Source: an uncultured bacterium
Lineage (GTDB): Bacteria; Krumholzibacteriota; Krumholzibacteriia; JACNKJ01
Direction of reading: 5' to 3'
Assembly: GCA_963695095.1 (NCBI GenBank)
Contig: CAVOFT010000001.1
Location: 2,624,001 to 2,688,000 of the forward strand
Length of the DNA stretch: 64,000 bases
Below are positions 37,794-47,870 of this stretch, in pieces. The position numbers and the translations under genes are program-made. Below the pieces are notes generated by a model that did no database searches, was not told the origin of the DNA, and saw only the letters and a list, made by a program, of their open reading frames with translations. The first letter of the stretch is position 1, and each line of letters starts with the position of its first letter.

Positions 37794-40673
<2,880 letters not shown>

Positions 40674-41132: not shown

Positions 41133-41555
41133 CTAGCCGCCCAGGTGAGCGGCGATGCGCTCGGCGAGCTGCGCGAGCTCCGCGGCAGGGGCCGTCCCCG
41201 GCTGCCAGGGGCCCTTGAGGTCATCCCCACGCCAGCGGGGCAGGATGTGGAGATGAAAATGAGGCACGACCTGACCCGCTGCGCCACCATTGGATTGGTG
41301 CAGGTTGAAGCCCTCGGCGCCCGTGGCGGCGACGAGCGCCTTCGCCACGCGCTGGGCGGCGGCGAAGACCGCGTCGCGGTCGGCTGGCGGCAGCTCCAGA
41401 AAAGTCTCGGCATGGGCCTTGGGAATGACGAGGCTGTGCCCCGGTGTCCCCGGCTGGATGTCCAGAAAGGCGAGGACGCGCTCGTCCGCGAAGAGTCGAT
41501 ACGCTGGCAGCGCGCCGGCGGCAATCCGACAGAAAACGCAATCCACGGCGACCAC
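41133..41555 (-). CDS. HIT-family hydrolase
   Basis: DCVFCRI, AFLDIQP, GHSLVIPKAH, GQVVPHFHLHILPR histidine triad. Confidence 0.95.
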   Translation of the reverse strand: MVAVDCVFCRIAAGALPAYRLFADERVLAFLDIQPGTPGHSLVIPKAHAETFLELPPADRDAVFAAAQRVAKALVAATGAEGFNLHQSNGGAAGQVVPHFHLHILPRWRGDDLKGPWQPGTAPAAELAQLAERIAAHLGG

Positions 41556-41652: not shown

Positions 41653-42405
41653 ATGTGCAACCCTGCCCTGGTTCTGGCGGCGACTGCCCGCCGCGCCGCT
41701 GGCGCGCTGCTTGTCGTAGCGCTCGGCGCAGGCGGCGCCAGCGGCCTGTCGCCGACTCACGTCGAGACTTCCCTGCGCTTCCTCGAGTACGATGCCCCTG
41801 CTGGGCTGCTGGCCTACGAGGTCACGCTGCGCAATCTCTCCAACCTGCCCGTTTCGTCCCTGCTCCTGACGGCGGAGCCTGTCTGCGTCGAGGGCCCTTT
41901 CGCGGTCGTCGAACTGGCGCGGGAGCAGCAGGCCAGCCGCCGCTTCACCTTCCCGATGCCGGCGGACAGCCAGGTCCTGCAGCCGCGCTTCGACCTCGAG
42001 TACACGAATTTCGAGGGTGAGCGGATCCGCGTGCCGGCCTCGCGCCCGCCTTTGCTGACCAACGTGGACTTCGCGGCAGTGGATCTGGAGACGGGGCGCG
42101 TTTCGCTGCGGGTCGACTTGCAGAACCCCGGCGCGGAGGGCCTGCTCTTCGTCGAACTCTGGGTGGAGAACCCGGGCCTGGCCGAAGGAACGCTACGGCT
42201 CGGCGATCTTTCCCCCGGCCAGCGGTTGAGCCTGGAACTGCCCTTGGCGCTGCCGCCGGGGGAGCTCTTCTTCAACCCCACGCTTCACTTCAGCTACCAC
42301 GCCTTCAGGGCCGAGGGGACGCGGCTGCACCGCAGCTTCCTGACCCTCCTGCAGCCGCGCCTCGATCGCGTGGCGGCCTCGCTCGCCGGCCAGTCCAGGC
42401 CCTGA
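41653..42405 (+). CDS. Exported hypothetical protein with two Ig-like beta-sandwich repeats
   Basis: GGAGG RBS, ATG at 41653, signal-like N-terminus; repeated pattern VTLRN...ELAREQQ...F...PRFDLEY / VDLQN...DLSPGQR...L...PTLHFSY. Confidence 0.7.
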   Translation: MCNPALVLAATARRAAGALLVVALGAGGASGLSPTHVETSLRFLEYDAPAGLLAYEVTLRNLSNLPVSSLLLTAEPVCVEGPFAVVELAREQQASRRFTFPMPADSQVLQPRFDLEYTNFEGERIRVPASRPPLLTNVDFAAVDLETGRVSLRVDLQNPGAEGLLFVELWVENPGLAEGTLRLGDLSPGQRLSLELPLALPPGELFFNPTLHFSYHAFRAEGTRLHRSFLTLLQPRLDRVAASLAGQSRP

Positions 42406-42424
42406 GGCGGGGCCACTTCCTAGC

Positions 42425-42460
42425 ACGAAAACGGCCCTCTTATCAGAGATAAGAGGGCCG
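42425..42460 (-). terminator. Intrinsic terminator (13-bp perfect stem)
   Basis: CGGCCCTCTTATC-TCT-GATAAGAGGGCCG followed by TTTT on the minus strand. Confidence 0.85.
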
Positions 42461-42575
42461 CGCCACCACTCCTCTTGACTCCAGACTCGGCGAACCGAGT
42501 CCTTTGCGGGAAGGCGGAGTCCCCATGACGCTCCCCCTCCCCTTGGCCCTTTGGAATGATACCGGATACTCGGGC
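42427..42575 (-). ncRNA. Candidate sigma54-dependent small RNA (~150 nt)
   Basis: Bounded by a sigma54 promoter (42588-42603) and a terminator (42425-42460); internal stems 42508-42542 and 42484-42501; six GGA triplets. Not matched to any known family. Confidence 0.6.
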
Positions 42576-42586
42576 AGTCATGCTTT

Positions 42587-42603
42587 GGCAGGATGCGTGC
42601 CAA
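42587..42603 (-). promoter_or_regulatory. Sigma54 -24/-12 promoter
   Basis: TTGGCACGCATCCTGCC: perfect TGGCACG -24 box, GG(42601-42600)-N10-GC(42589-42588). Confidence 0.75.
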
Positions 42604-42715
42604 TCACCTCTCCGGGCAAGGCCGCCACCAATCCGTAACCAGCTGTATTCAATCAAGTTGCTGGACCTCCCCCAGATCGCTGGCGGAACTCGAAGCCTTC
42701 AGCACGAGGAATAGT

Positions 42716-42754
42716 AAAAAAAAGAGGTGGCGTAAAGGATCTTTACGCCACCTC
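42716..42754 (-). terminator. Intrinsic terminator after the small secreted protein gene
   Basis: GAGGTGGCGTAAAG-ATC-CTTTACGCCACCTC 14-bp stem followed by T8 on the minus strand. Confidence 0.9.
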
Positions 42755-42775: not shown

Positions 42776-43141
42776 CTACTCCAGCTTCTCGTTGTGCCCC
42801 GTGACATTGTCGCTGTTGAAGCGCCAGCGGCGGCCGCTCAGCACCCCATCGTGCAGGGTGATCGGATCGTTGCCCGCGCTCGTCCAGATGAACTTCACCT
42901 GCTCGATGCTGTAGCCATCCAGCGGCTGCAGATAGCCCCAGACCCGAGCCGGCGTGATCCCCTCGAAGCTGATCTCGAGCCGCTGGGTCGTGACGACGGT
43001 GAAGTCCTCGCCGGCGAATGAAAAGTGCGTCATGCCCGGATCGACGACGATGGTGTACAGAGGGCCCTCGGCTGGCGCGAGCGCGCTCGTCGCGATCAGG
43101 CAGAACAGGGCCAGCGATGCGATCTTGAGCAGGTTCTTCAT
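42776..43141 (-). CDS. Small secreted hypothetical protein (121 aa)
   Basis: GAGGAGG RBS; signal peptide MKNLLKIASLALFCLIATSALA; beta-rich mature part; terminator downstream. Confidence 0.85.
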   Translation of the reverse strand: MKNLLKIASLALFCLIATSALAPAEGPLYTIVVDPGMTHFSFAGEDFTVVTTQRLEISFEGITPARVWGYLQPLDGYSIEQVKFIWTSAGNDPITLHDGVLSGRRWRFNSDNVTGHNEKLE

Positions 43142-43207: not shown

Positions 43208-46200
43208 TCAGGGCGCCGTCTCTCCGTCTCCACGCAGTCTAGCATAGATGCGCAGTCTGCGATAGAGGGTAGGCTTGCTGATCCCGAGCAGGCGAGCCGC
43301 CCGCGTCTTGCTCCCGACCGCCCGCACCAGATGGTGAGCGAGGGCCGCCTGCAGCGGCAGCTCCAGCGGCTGCTCCTCGGAGAATTCCGCGGACGCGACG
43401 AGGAGGGCCGCCAGGGCGTCCAGGCTCTGAGCAGCCCCCAGCTCCCGCCGCGTCTCCAGGAAGTCCTCGGGCAGATCCTCGGGTTGGATGAGCTGTCCCC
43501 GCGAGAGCACGACACTGGAATAGATGACATTCTTGAGCTGCCGGATATTGCCCGGCCAGGGGTGCGTCTGGAAGAGATCGCTCACCTCGGGCGCGAGGCG
43601 CTTGATCCCCCCGGGCAGACCGGCGCAGGCCTGGGCCAGGAAGTGCTCGATGAGCAGCGGGATATCCTCCCGCTTCTCGCGCAGCGGCGAGAGCTGGAAG
43701 CGCAGGACGTTGATCCGGTAGAAGAGGTCCTCGCGGAAGCGACCGCTGCGCACGTCGGCCTCCAGCTGCCGGTTGGTGGCCGCCAGGACGCGGACGTCGG
43801 CCCGCAGCACCTGCGTGCCGCCCACGCGATTGAACTCCTTGTTCTGCAGCACCCGCAGCAGCTTCGCCTGCATGTCGGCGCTCATCTCGCCGATCTCGTC
43901 CAGCAGAACCGTGCCCCCCGCCGCCTCCTCGAAGACGCCGATGTGGCGGCTCACCGCGCTCGTGAAGGCGCCGCGTTCGTGACCGAAGAGAGTGCTCTCC
44001 AGCAGCGGGGCCGGAATCGAGGCGCAGTTCACGGGCAGGAAGGGGCGTCCCCGTCGGGCGCCGCTGTAGTGGATCGCCCGGGCCACCTCCTCCTTGCCGG
44101 TGCCGGACTCCCCCGTGATGAGCACGGTGCTGTCCACGTCGAGCACGCGCTCGATGAGCTGCTTGAGGCGCTGCATGTCGCGCCCCCTGCCGACCAGATG
44201 CGGGAGTTCCCCTGCCGCCACCCGGGCAGGCGGCGTCGCGGCCCCCGCCGCGCTGCGGCCCTGCTCGCGGCGCAGGCCGAGGCGCAGCAGCCGGGCAATC
44301 CCCGCGAGGAAGTCGCGCTCCGCCGCCGTACTCGGCTCTCCGCCGCGCTCGAGGACGAGCACCCCCTCCGCGGCGTCGGCACCCTCCGGTCGTAGGGGTT
44401 GCAGCAGCAGGCGACTCCCCCCAGCGGTGGCCGGCGCCAGCTCCTCCTGATTGGCGGATGACCAGAGCTGCGGGCCAAGCTTCTCCTCCGCGCCGCGCAC
44501 CTCGTCGCCGAGCCAGATCGGCGCACCGGCCGCCGATTCGGGCGCGAGGCCCAGCCGCACTCGACGGTAGCCGAAGGAATCGCGCAGCAGGTCGAGCACG
44601 CGCTCCAGACCCTCGCGCGGGTCGCCGGCGCCCTCCAGAAGTGCCAGGCCCTGGTAGAGCCCGGCCAGGCGCAGCCGGCCGTCGCCTTCGATGCGCTCGA
44701 CGAAGCGGCCCAGCCGCTGCTGGAGGCGCAGCTGCAGTGTGTCCCATTCGGCGACGAGGGCACTCACCTTGCGCCGCTCGATGATGTCCGTCGCCAAGTG
44801 CAGGCACTCCCGGGCGCGCGGCTCGTCGCCGTCTTCCAGGCGCAGGAGACCGATCCGGCTGTACATGCGCGCCAGCATTTCATAGCGGTCCAGGCTGGCG
44901 TAGAGATCGGCGGCCTTCTCGAGCGCGGTCAAGGCCTGCGCGCGCGCTCCGCCCGCCAAGTGCACGTCGACAGCGGCGGCCTGGATGCGGGCCTCTTCCA
45001 GGCGATTGTTGATGCGCCAGACCGAGACCAGGCCCTCCTCGATCGTCGCTCGCGCTCCCTGCAAATCGCCGAGGGCGAGCTGCACCGGAATCAGCCGCCG
45101 GAACATGGTGGCCAGCTCCGTATGCGCCTCGATGGCGCGGCAGGTGGCGATGGCCGAGCGCAGGTGGGCCAGCGCCGCCTCCGGGTGCCCCTCGACCTGT
45201 TCGATCTCGCCGAGCAAACCCTCCACCTCGGCGCCCAGCTGGATGTTGCCGACCACGCGGTTCAGCTCGAGGCACTCCTGGCACTGGGCGCGGGCGGTTG
45301 TCAGGTCGTTCAGCTCGAAATTGATCAGGGCCACGTTGTAGAGGCTGATCAGGTAGCCGGGGAAGTTCTTGAGCCGCTTCTTGATCGCCATGCTGCGGTT
45401 GAAGTAGTCGATGGCGAGGGCGAAGCGCTCGGTGAGGCGGTACAGATTGCCCAGGTTGTTGAGGCTGGCCGCCACGCGGTTCTCGTCGCCGGCGCGCTCG
45501 CGCAGGGCGAGGGCGCGCTTGTAGTAGGCCTCGGCCTCTTGCCACCGATTGAGCGCCCACTGGGCGGCACCCAGGGTGTTGTAGGTCTGTCCCAGCTCCA
45601 CTTGATGGGCGGTGGGCTCGAACAGGCGCAGGGCGACCTCACAGCGCTCCACCGCCCGCTCGTGCTCCCCCTTGCGGTAGTGCAACCAGGCCAGCTCGTT
45701 GAGCAGCAAGCCCCGCTCGTAGCCGGACAGCGCCTCGCTGTAGACATCCAGCAGGCGGCCGAGGATGCCGATCGCCCAGGCGAACTCGCCGCGCGTCTCA
45801 CCGATCTCCGCGAGCTGGCGCAGGAGGACGCTGACGGCCGGCAGCAGCTCGGGGACCGACGCACTCGGCAGCGCGACGGCCGCGCCGCCGGTCGCCTGGA
45901 GGCGATCCAGGAAATCCTCGCTGCCGGTGAGGGCGCGCAGGCCGGCCTGGTAGGCCTCGGCGGCGGCATCGAGGTCCCCGCGCTGGAGGAGGCTGCCGCC
46001 CAGCAGCAAGTAGACGCGGCGCAGGCCCTCGACGCCGAGCTGCCGCTCCACGCGGGGATCGCGCATCAGATCCACCAGATGGGCCAGCAGGAGCGGATAC
46101 CCCTCGCGCTCCGCCCAGCGGAACAGCGCCAGGCTCTCTCGGGCCAGGCTCGTCCAGTCCTCGGCGCCGCGCAGGTGCTGCAGGCGCAAGAGCGCAGCCC

Positions 46201-47722
46201 TGGCGGCGGCCGGCTTGCCGATGCCCGCGCGCTCGGGCGCTGGGAAGAGGCCGGCGCACAGGCGCTGCAACTCTTGACGCCGGACCGGCGCCAGGCCCTC
46301 GCGCAGACTGCGCCGGAGCCCCACATCCGCCAGCTCGATGCGCAGTCCCCAGCGGCCGCTGGCCGCATCCAGGCCGGGCCGCCAGGCCAGGAGCCCGCGC
46401 CGATCCAGCGCGGAAACCCGGCTGAAGCAGGCCGCCTCACCCTCATCGAAGAGCCGGGTCAGCAAGCCGAGCGACAGCGCCTCATTCTGCAAGGCCAGGA
46501 GTTCGAGCAGGGGCCGACTGTCCGCGGGCTCGGCAGTAGCCTGCCGGGGAGCCGCAGGCGCGACGGACGGCTTCGGCGCGGACGGCGAGGCGAGGCGCTG
46601 CCGCTTCAGTCGCGGCCATTCGGCCAGCAATTGCTCCGCGCAGGCCGCCAGCTCGCCATGGCCGCGATCCTGGTCCGGACCCGCGAGCACGAGCAGGCGC
46701 GCCGCGCCTGGATTCGTCCAGAGGCGATCCAGAAGCAAGGAGGGCGTTTCGAGGCCGTCCACCCAGCGCAGGGCGCCGGCGGCCTCGCGGCTGCCCTCGC
46801 CACTGCGCACCCAGGGCTGCTCGGCTGCTTCGCCCCGCTCCTCGCCGCTGCGCGCGAACTGCAGGGCGAGCGCCCGCTGCAGCTGTCGGGCTTCCGGACC
46901 GCCCACCTCGAGCCAGAGGTCCTCGCCGCTGCGAAATGCCCGCAACAAGGACTCGGCGCGGGCTGCCAGCGCCGGGTCCGGCCCGGTCGCCAGCGCGTCG
47001 GCGGCAGCGGCCAGCTCCGCCAGGGCGGCATCGCCGGCCAGAGGGGAGGCCGCCAGCAGCGCGCTGGCCGTGGGGCGGGCCGTGGGGTCGGCGGCCAGGA
47101 GTCGCGGCAGCTCCCGGGCGCGGAAGTCCGCCCAGGCCGGGCACTCGGCAGCCCAGCGCGCAACGATGTGGCCGAAGCCGTGGAGGTCGGCCCCCTGATC
47201 CAGGTCCAGGCCCGCGCGCAGGGCAGGCGAGGGGTCGAGGCCCGGCGCTCCGGCCTCGAGGAAGCCCGGGAAGTGCAGGATCATCGGCGGCAGGTAGAGC
47301 AGGCCGCCCCGGCCATCGCTCCAGATCAGCTCGGGCGCGAGCTGCGTGAAGGGCAGGCCCTCGACGCGCCCCAGCAGCAGATCGCCCAGGAGCACGGCGA
47401 GCAGGCCCGTCGCGGCCTCCGGCGACGGCGCCGGCAAGGGCCCTGCCTCCGCCGGCAGCTCGAGCAGGGCGTAGGTGGCGCCATCCCGCTGTCCCAGTCG
47501 ACAGGCCATGGCGCGCTCGCCGCAAAGCTCGCGCGCGCGGAATTGCCGGTAGGCGAGACTGGCCAGATCCAGGGGCGCCCGCTCGGCCTGCTGGTAGAGG
47601 TAGAGCAGGGCGCGCTGGCCGCCCAGGACATCGCGCAGGAGGAAGCTGTGGAGCAGCTCGCTCTCATCGAGGGCGCGCTCCACGCGATAGCGGGCGAGAA
47701 AGAGGCTGCCGACAGCGAGCAT
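43208..47722 (-). CDS. Giant sigma54 enhancer-binding protein: pseudokinase, degenerate STAND-like region, TPR, GAF-like, AAA+, Fis HTH
   Basis: VLITGESGTGKEEVARAIH, VNCA, LFGHERGAFTSA, LLDEIGEM, QAKLLRVLQ, FREDLFYRIN, WPGNIRQL, AARLLGISKPTLYRRL; TPR repeats (LNNLGNLY); start at 47722 inferred. Confidence 0.92.
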   Translation of the reverse strand: MLAVGSLFLARYRVERALDESELLHSFLLRDVLGGQRALLYLYQQAERAPLDLASLAYRQFRARELCGERAMACRLGQRDGATYALLELPAEAGPLPAPSPEAATGLLAVLLGDLLLGRVEGLPFTQLAPELIWSDGRGGLLYLPPMILHFPGFLEAGAPGLDPSPALRAGLDLDQGADLHGFGHIVARWAAECPAWADFRARELPRLLAADPTARPTASALLAASPLAGDAALAELAAAADALATGPDPALAARAESLLRAFRSGEDLWLEVGGPEARQLQRALALQFARSGEERGEAAEQPWVRSGEGSREAAGALRWVDGLETPSLLLDRLWTNPGAARLLVLAGPDQDRGHGELAACAEQLLAEWPRLKRQRLASPSAPKPSVAPAAPRQATAEPADSRPLLELLALQNEALSLGLLTRLFDEGEAACFSRVSALDRRGLLAWRPGLDAASGRWGLRIELADVGLRRSLREGLAPVRRQELQRLCAGLFPAPERAGIGKPAAARAALLRLQHLRGAEDWTSLARESLALFRWAEREGYPLLLAHLVDLMRDPRVERQLGVEGLRRVYLLLGGSLLQRGDLDAAAEAYQAGLRALTGSEDFLDRLQATGGAAVALPSASVPELLPAVSVLLRQLAEIGETRGEFAWAIGILGRLLDVYSEALSGYERGLLLNELAWLHYRKGEHERAVERCEVALRLFEPTAHQVELGQTYNTLGAAQWALNRWQEAEAYYKRALALRERAGDENRVAASLNNLGNLYRLTERFALAIDYFNRSMAIKKRLKNFPGYLISLYNVALINFELNDLTTARAQCQECLELNRVVGNIQLGAEVEGLLGEIEQVEGHPEAALAHLRSAIATCRAIEAHTELATMFRRLIPVQLALGDLQGARATIEEGLVSVWRINNRLEEARIQAAAVDVHLAGGARAQALTALEKAADLYASLDRYEMLARMYSRIGLLRLEDGDEPRARECLHLATDIIERRKVSALVAEWDTLQLRLQQRLGRFVERIEGDGRLRLAGLYQGLALLEGAGDPREGLERVLDLLRDSFGYRRVRLGLAPESAAGAPIWLGDEVRGAEEKLGPQLWSSANQEELAPATAGGSRLLLQPLRPEGADAAEGVLVLERGGEPSTAAERDFLAGIARLLRLGLRREQGRSAAGAATPPARVAAGELPHLVGRGRDMQRLKQLIERVLDVDSTVLITGESGTGKEEVARAIHYSGARRGRPFLPVNCASIPAPLLESTLFGHERGAFTSAVSRHIGVFEEAAGGTVLLDEIGEMSADMQAKLLRVLQNKEFNRVGGTQVLRADVRVLAATNRQLEADVRSGRFREDLFYRINVLRFQLSPLREKREDIPLLIEHFLAQACAGLPGGIKRLAPEVSDLFQTHPWPGNIRQLKNVIYSSVVLSRGQLIQPEDLPEDFLETRRELGAAQSLDALAALLVASAEFSEEQPLELPLQAALAHHLVRAVGSKTRAARLLGISKPTLYRRLRIYARLRGDGETAP

Positions 47723-47870
47723 GGCTGGCACCGCGTTAAGATTCTTGACCGCTCTCGATTTTACACCAGGCGAGGCCCCGCGAACAGGCCTGAGCGGAGA
47801 AAGCCGGGCTGGTGCCGGAGCCCGTAAGTCACTATGATTCCCGCTGATCACAACATCCGGGAGACCCGCC

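Follow-up and report, generated by a model that had tools for sequence, protein, structure and literature searches.

GlmY of the Enterobacteria is a small RNA whose sigma54- and IHF-dependent gene adjoins the GlrK-QseG-GlrR operon, which encodes the activator together with a small extracytoplasmic protein. GlrR binds three TGTC-N10-GACA sites and GlmY acts by protein mimicry on RapZ. In Vibrio one of the 4-5 copies of qrr lies beside luxO, and the Qrr RNAs, which require Hfq, carry a single-stranded segment that is identical across homologues and end at a Rho-independent terminator. Two papers on the LuxO-Qrr system describe a small RNA under the control of a sigma54 promoter and an NtrC-type activator (PMC4878744, PMC11407668). 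The Pseudomonas CrcZ gene is located directly downstream of cbrB and is reported to need both RpoN and CbrB, with read-through from the activator gene able to add to its expression (PMC5113210). In Myxococcus the gene for the NtrC-like PxrR directly precedes that of Pxr, a sigma54 promoter is predicted with an enhancer region ahead of it, and the RNA has three stem-loops, two conserved and a variable one 3' to these (PMC5684412).

Here we analysed a locus within a 64-kb stretch of DNA (the whole stretch that was analysed, referred to as the window) which likely holds an uncatalogued stand-alone non-coding RNA gene of ~149 nt, driven by sigma54 and the activator encoded beside it and acting in trans, most likely through pairing without Hfq. 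The window comes from an uncultured bacterium (genome G000) of the Krumholzibacteriota, an uncultured phylum known from metagenomes, and the RNA gene is on the minus strand. Titles and abstracts from part of the literature on this phylum mention no regulatory RNA.

Searches with tblastn recovered the same fixed order at every locus with enough flanking sequence: activator gene, 121-aa protein gene, RNA, convergent gene and, further on, a class II ribonucleotide reductase gene (Table 1). The activator is a giant enhancer-binding protein with the Pfam domains Sigma54_activat (5.6e-65), TPR_12, AAA_lid_14 and a Fis-type HTH_8. A Pfam search with its N-terminal ~670 residues (45698-47722, minus strand) returned no family. 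Language-model features placed this part close to protein-kinase/AAA_16/TPR proteins of the bacterial Ser/Thr-kinase type (score 0.86, a lead only) and it may be a degenerate kinase-like sensor. The 121-aa protein matched no known family in Pfam and an Atlas look-up gave no usable match. Its gene is probably co-transcribed with that of the activator, as the two are on the same strand, 66 nt apart, and a terminator scan called no terminator-like site between them.

The convergent gene was kept in all loci with enough flank. Its 250-aa product had no Pfam match and its family is unassigned; it starts with a signal-peptide-like segment and contains a conserved VETxxRFLEYD segment, and a promoter-like TTGCCT-17-TATCGT is present upstream of the gene. 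Beyond it are a HIT-domain gene (41133-41555, minus strand) and the class II (B12-dependent) ribonucleotide reductase gene (37794-40673, minus strand). A strong sigma70-like site, TTGACC-18-TATACT (41111-41082), lies ~400 nt upstream of the reductase start, giving a long unexplained leader.

Table 1. Features of the RNA locus, with positions numbered along the window
Feature	Position	Strand	Remarks
Convergent gene, 250-aa secreted protein	41653..42405	+	called by codon-position GC; ends 22 nt from the RNA terminator
Small RNA, ~149 nt	42428..42576	-	predicted +1 to terminator T-tract
Rho-independent terminator of the RNA	42428..42460	-	13 bp, 3-nt loop, then UUUU
Conserved AGGAGUGGU	42465..42473	-	one-position G to A in G006 and L128
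Hairpin P2, GACUCGG-UUCG-CCGAGUC	42484..42501	-	sequence and length vary between homologues
Hairpin P1, GGGGAGGGGGAG/CTCCGCCTTCCC	42508..42542	-	12-bp G-rich/C-rich stem (11/12 pairs in the window), 11-nt loop
Invariant 5' 18-mer UGCCCGAGUAUCCGGUAU, candidate seed	42559..42576	-	identical in 17/17
Sigma54 promoter TGGCACGCATCCTGC	42588..42602	-	GG at -24, GC at -12
IHF-like region	42636..42663	.	ATACAGCTGGTTA (42648-42636, -) and AATCAAGTTGCTG (42651-42663, +)
Operon intrinsic terminator	42714..42754	-	14-pair stem 42754-42724, then T-run
Palindrome GTAAAGATCCTTTAC, putative enhancer (UAS)	42732-42746	-	upper stem of the operon terminator
121-aa protein gene	42776..43141	-	N-terminal signal-peptide-like segment; 66 nt downstream of the activator gene
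Giant sigma54 activator (EBP) gene	43208..47722	-	ORF open from 47977, probable ATG 47722, ~1500 aa
Palindrome GTCAAGAATCTTAAC, putative operator	47735..47749	read on -	13 nt upstream of ATG 47722

The predicted RNA gene, its promoter and its conservation

The initial annotation, made from the window sequence, had proposed an undescribed small RNA gene behind a strong terminator of the upstream operon and ~110 bp of AT-richer DNA, with a sigma54 promoter, two stems and a perfect 13-bp terminator followed by a T-tract. Each of these elements was recovered: the 14-pair operon terminator, ~110 nt of less GC-rich DNA between it and the promoter box, the box itself, both stems within the predicted fold, and 13 bp running into TTTT. 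The GG and GC doublets are exactly 10 nt apart in TGGCAC-N5-TTGC, and TGGCACGCATCCTGC was the sole match to TGGCACG-N4-YTGC in the window. The box is weak by itself, as 20 of 100 shuffles also yielded at least one such match. TGGCA and TGC were invariant in the 11 promoters that were aligned and present in all 17 copies, in each of which an identical 18-mer followed ~12 nt after TGGCA...TGC. The sequence preceding the box differed among copies, and so did the 11-12 nt from the -12 element to +1. The genome also encodes RpoN, with a Sigma54_DBD match of 217 bits at C1:2454036-2454509.

The IHF-like site that had been proposed for this promoter stood in part. The plus-strand AATCAAGTTGCTG is one mismatch from WATCAANNNNTTR; the position that is conserved among the copies, however, is the adjacent one, whose first base on the RNA strand precedes TGGCA by 45-47 nt. 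A site with at most 2 mismatches was found there in 9/17 promoters, and the window's own ATACAGCTGGTTA has 3. Five genes of the HU/IHF family are present in the genome.

The predicted 5' end falls 12 nt after the GC of the -12 element and coincides with the first base of the invariant 18-mer in 17/17 copies, in agreement with the start near 42575 suggested earlier. The region 42427-42580 folded with an MFE of -74.6 kcal/mol (z = -3.67) and only 1 of 200 shuffles folded as well. Among the conserved elements the P1 loop AUGGGGA (42520-42526), which is invariant, was the most accessible, with a mean unpaired probability of 0.75. The mean predicted value for the 5' 18-mer was 0.41, with clade 1 at ~0.5 and clade 2, where the segment is predicted to be mostly paired, at 0.2-0.4. 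The conserved AGGAGUGGU forms the loop of a small ACCA/UGGU hairpin in clade 2. A long-range helix between UAUCAUUCC and GGAGUGGUG in the MFE fold was rejected as unsupported; C19A in clade 2 and the G-to-A change in G006 and L128 hit the same pair without compensation.

As the initial annotation had held, no annotated gene accounts for this promoter-terminator pair. The overlapping 78-aa ORF (42420-42656) had a GC3 of 0.61 compared to 0.88-0.93 in the neighbouring genes and carried no coding signature. The RNA has its own promoter and its own Rho-independent terminator, is intergenic and is followed by no gene on the same strand. A role as leader or attenuator of a downstream gene was ruled out because the next gene is convergent, judged by codon-position GC.

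Homologues were collected in several searches. When the DNA of 40 relatives was searched together with G000 (41 genomes), 11/41 matched, among them 9 of the 11 further members of the same family, and identity in these matches began at TGGCAC. A 16-mer scan of genome contigs returned 110 stretches, of which seven loci (8 copies) held the whole RNA and the rest were chance. A 21-mer scan of metagenome contigs yielded 10 loci, of which 2 were chance and 8 true; two of the latter duplicate known sequences. This resulted in 17 distinct RNA sequences in two clades, from 10 genomes of one family and 6 metagenome contigs. A covariance model was built from 10 clade-1 sequences and all 17 were realigned to it. 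In the resulting alignment 98.4% of cells were paired and 18/22 pairs changed on both sides. P1 contributed 9/12 such pairs, with 97.5% of its cells paired, and the terminator 9/10 of its modelled pairs; P2 was present in all copies and could not be aligned. The observed covariation score was reached by none of 500 shuffles, a statistic that overstates independence, since the rows are related sequences; the alignment, in addition, is fitted to the model. Sliding the partners by 1-3 columns lowered pairing to 54-62%, and an alignment of clade 1 made with MAFFT only had the same compensatory pattern. Rfam returned nothing real in the window region up to E = 10, with Qrr, Pxr, CrcZ, GlmY/GlmZ and CsrB/RsmZ all absent from the matches, and nothing at the gathering score in nine homologous loci, in keeping with an undescribed RNA.

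Judged from the genomes available, the RNA is so far confined to one family of the Krumholzibacteriota. A covariance model scan of 151 genomes of the class matched 11, 10 of them in this family. A weak match in G129 (28.8 bits) was rejected, as it had no sigma54 box and a coding-like context. The 121-aa gene was found in exactly the same 10 family genomes as the RNA, and the cassette as a whole was present in 10/12 family genomes, fragmentary in one and not found in one. The last of these, G002, belongs to the same genus (98% complete, 8 contigs), and neither the RNA, the 121-aa gene nor the activator N-terminus was found in it. In G011 (77% complete) activator fragments were located at contig ends and the locus is probably unassembled. 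One genome, G003, carries two diverged RNA copies (L006/L067, C253:451918-452245) that are convergent, their terminators back to back; both come with a sigma54 box and a palindrome of their own, and the second copy does not follow a 121-aa gene.

Palindromes upstream of the RNA promoter and the activator gene

The upper stem of the operon terminator follows the consensus (C/T)GTAAA-N5-TTTAC(G/A) and the lower stem varies freely. In 17/17 copies (16 placed by script, L128 from a separate read) the centre of this palindrome preceded the T of TGGCA by 135.5-140.5 nt, and the DNA between palindrome and box could not be aligned among copies. In the second G003 copy, which has no preceding 121-aa gene, TAAAGATTCTTT stands at the same distance. 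The 3.64-Mb genome holds a single exact copy of the palindrome. Across the family it occurred 1-4 times per genome in 9/12 genomes and was absent from G002, G010 and G011, counts that were no higher than those of a reversed control. Genome-wide there were 28 degenerate palindromes, and only the one in the terminator had a good sigma54 box downstream at the spacing of an enhancer. As this is the palindrome's only coupling to a good sigma54 box in the genome, the RNA looks like the dedicated output of the activator and its only evident sigma54 target.

A related palindrome, GTCAAGAATCTTAAC, stands just after a TAAAAT -10-like hexamer in front of the activator gene. The window holds only 2 matches to GTAAANNNNNTTTAC at <=2 mismatches, of which this is one, with 0.44 expected per 64 kb, and in 10/10 genomes an equivalent palindrome (<=2 mismatches) precedes the probable activator start by 13-45 nt. 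The position of the palindromes suggests that the activator HTH may bind them and that the activator may repress its own promoter through the upstream one. The earlier proposal that the RNA is the output of the adjacent activator gained support from synteny, co-occurrence and the palindrome present upstream of both the RNA promoter and the activator gene.

A further TTTAC (42714-42718) was observed after the T-run of the operon terminator. The T-run is followed by AC(G/A) in most copies, giving a third TTTAC half-site 18 nt past the right arm of the palindrome (window 42714-42723).

Mode of action and alternative explanations

To look for pairing partners, the conserved segments were compared with the genomes of the family. 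A 9-mer-seeded duplex scan of the whole genome left targets at background, and the complement of the 18-mer at <=3 mismatches was about as frequent in the 12 family genomes as a reversed-pattern control. Across 2635 predicted start regions the best and tenth-best energies of the three conserved segments were no better than those of 10 shuffled segments. The start regions of neighbouring genes held only generic Shine-Dalgarno matches to the RNA, and at the Walker-A codons of sigma54 activators the activator's own gene scored -14.1 kcal/mol compared to a background of -13.0 +/- 3.2. The one recurrent site with 2 mismatches was discarded. It is an 18-mer that could form 17 consecutive pairs with the 5' end of the RNA, found within the coding region, near the 3' end, of a ~490-aa gene in four genomes of genus g3 (L151, L164, L165, L166); as the gene has no orthologue in the window's genome, we judged the site to be chance together with coding conservation.

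Two genes showed 12-nt complementarity to the P1 loop, an ABC exporter and an M28-like secreted peptidase. The exporter was dropped, its start region being unconserved. The peptidase start AAGGAGUCCCCAUG (G000:C1:2884863-2884890, L211/L213) has 12 nt complementary to the P1 loop and arm. Its start region reads GGAG(A)UCCCCAUG, and orthologues in 10 other family genomes keep UCCCCAUG or a near match to it; one of the 10 is G002, which is without the RNA. TCCCC before the start was found in 15/1781 well-scored predicted genes. The peptidase is the one weak lead to a target, and none of the searches rose above background.

A Pfam search for Hfq gave no match in this genome, which is 93.5% complete, and csrA was found here and in 12/12 family genomes, with or without the RNA. 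These were the two genes that the initial annotation had singled out for checking, and it had offered a CsrA sponge as one function for an RNA with six GGA triplets. A direct read of the RNA sequence confirmed all six. In this option, which the analysis weakened, the P1-loop GGA and the AGGAGUGGU GGA would bind one CsrA dimer, relieving CsrA-repressed mRNAs when the activator fires. The presence of csrA speaks for it, one of these two invariant triplets is in the accessible P1 loop and the other in the small clade-2 hairpin loop, and a failed search for base-pairing targets fits a protein partner. However, only these 2/6 are conserved and unpaired, the others being paired in P1 or unconserved, and known CsrA sponges carry five or more GGA motifs. 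The two motifs are GGGGA and GAGGA rather than ANGGA, and a decoy of this kind gives no role to the invariant 18-nt 5' end. The genomic setting of csrA also speaks against it. At G000:C1:1850642-1853797 (L135) a flagellin C-terminal-domain gene (FlgL-like) is followed by fliW, csrA and a flagellin gene, a cluster with the FliW partner-switch arrangement, in which CsrA is antagonised by FliW and not by an RNA. The occurrence of csrA in the RNA-less G002 was a neutral result. We regard the CsrA decoy as unlikely, and as the main rival to base-pairing through the invariant segments, which is favoured.

Two other explanations concern whether there is a non-coding RNA at all. The conserved block could be a DNA-level regulatory element or a read-through 3' tail, comparable to the processed CrcZ*, with a box that is silent or fortuitous. 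Parts of the stretch were found in four metatranscriptome runs from 3 studies, as read-length contigs of depth 2-5 with no strand or end information. One contig of 151 nt covers 42428-42564 with one mismatch, in a run that covers the neighbouring genes at a depth of ~2, and RNA-library contigs of relatives reach from the last part of the 121-aa gene through the terminator and the promoter into the 5' part of the RNA. Such contigs could be DNA carry-over or read-through. Those of the relatives, with the insignificance of the box within a single window, are what this explanation has in its favour. It is nevertheless very unlikely given that the box is kept in every copy when the flanking spacer varies, that conservation starts at +1, that two helices covary, something a DNA site would not need, and that a strong terminator precedes the promoter. 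The second G003 copy, which keeps box and palindrome without the upstream activator operon, argues in the same direction. The block could also be a small mRNA or dual-function RNA in which the G-rich arm of P1 serves as Shine-Dalgarno sequence, the loop AUG starts a micropeptide (MGT-L/P-P...) and P1 gates translation. GGAG(G) does lie 4-11 nt upstream of the invariant AUG in 16/17 copies, with an earlier ATGGGGA taken by the script in L125, and codons one to three are conserved. The frame, however, stops after 7, 8, 9, 12, 14, 27, 29, 69 or 84 codons across copies and runs through the terminator in one of them, changes past the third codon are the compensatory changes of the stem and not codon-wise, and the GC3 of the window's frame is not coding-like. 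A micropeptide is therefore highly improbable, and a non-coding RNA that pairs with mRNAs is the reading we carry forward.

Proposed circuit and its relation to described systems

For a non-coding RNA acting by pairing, the arrangement of the sites suggests the following circuit. Sigma54 RNA polymerase would bind the -24/-12 box, and the activator, encoded ~0.6 kb upstream, would bind GTAAA-N5-TTTAC ~163 nt upstream of the RNA start, a palindrome that is part of the terminator hairpin of the activator's own operon. A bend at the IHF-like site at about -70 would bring the activator to the polymerase, with transcription starting from 42576. Bound to the same palindrome downstream of its own -10 element, the activator would limit its own synthesis. 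The RNA would end at its strong intrinsic terminator and act in trans, with the 5' 18-mer, the P1 loop AUGGGGA and AGGAGUGGU as putative recognition surfaces and mRNA pairing without Hfq as the most likely mode.

A more specific joint reading ties these points together and is, taken whole, rather doubtful. Here the cassette would be gained and lost as a unit, and the activator would be a giant TPR protein, its N-terminal part possibly pseudokinase-like, with the non-coding RNA as its single sigma54 target. The palindrome would have three roles, as operon terminator hairpin, as enhancer of the RNA promoter and as operator at the activator promoter. The invariant loop AUGGGGAC would be the antisense of the start-codon region GUCCCCAU, so that the RNA would silence a small set of mRNAs without Hfq by covering the spacer and AUG, with the M28-like GGAG(A)UCCCCAUG as first candidate.

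The locus offers a fully specified, testable circuit of sensor-activator, enhancer, IHF-like site, sigma54 box and RNA, whose parts could be transferred to a laboratory host. In addition, it appears to be an example of a terminator hairpin that acts as an enhancer. If the activator truly has a single target, all signalling by this 1500-residue protein would run through a 149-nt RNA, and the RNA would be a handle for finding what the system controls.

Compared with described systems, the locus shares with LuxO-Qrr a sigma54 promoter, an NtrC-type activator, a small RNA as that activator's apparent principal output, an invariant segment and a terminator. It differs in that the activator is without a receiver domain and has ~670 unassigned residues and TPR repeats instead, that there is one RNA copy (two in G003), that Hfq was not found, and that there is no sequence or Rfam match to Qrr. 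CrcZ, at ~400 nt, titrates Hfq/Crc through A-rich motifs, whereas the RNA here is 149 nt, G/C-rich and without such repeats, has no Rfam match, and is separated from the activator gene by the 121-aa gene and a strong terminator. CsrB/RsmZ resemble it in having GGA motifs in hairpin loops in a genome with csrA; here only two GGA are conserved, the promoter is of the sigma54 type and not GacA-dependent, csrA is linked to fliW, and again Rfam gives no match. With GlmY it has in common a small RNA gene adjoining an operon of an activator and a small extracytoplasmic protein, without an Rfam match. The likeness to Pxr extends to an NtrC-like activator gene upstream, a sigma54 promoter with a putative enhancer region, and three stem-loops with the variable one 3' of the conserved ones. 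Pxr belongs to another phylum and has no sequence or Rfam match here, the activator here is not a response regulator, and the putative palindromic enhancer doubles as the operon terminator.

The resemblance to Qrr1 and Pxr that the initial annotation had pointed out is borne out at the level of design. What is new is the RNA family and the architecture of a palindrome embedded in a terminator; the kind of regulation is already known. The locus extends the design of an activator gene followed by its sigma54-dependent small RNA beyond the Proteobacteria and Myxococcota, and to an activator outside the response regulators. By analogy, its logic is that of LuxO-Qrr, CbrB-CrcZ and PxrR-Pxr.
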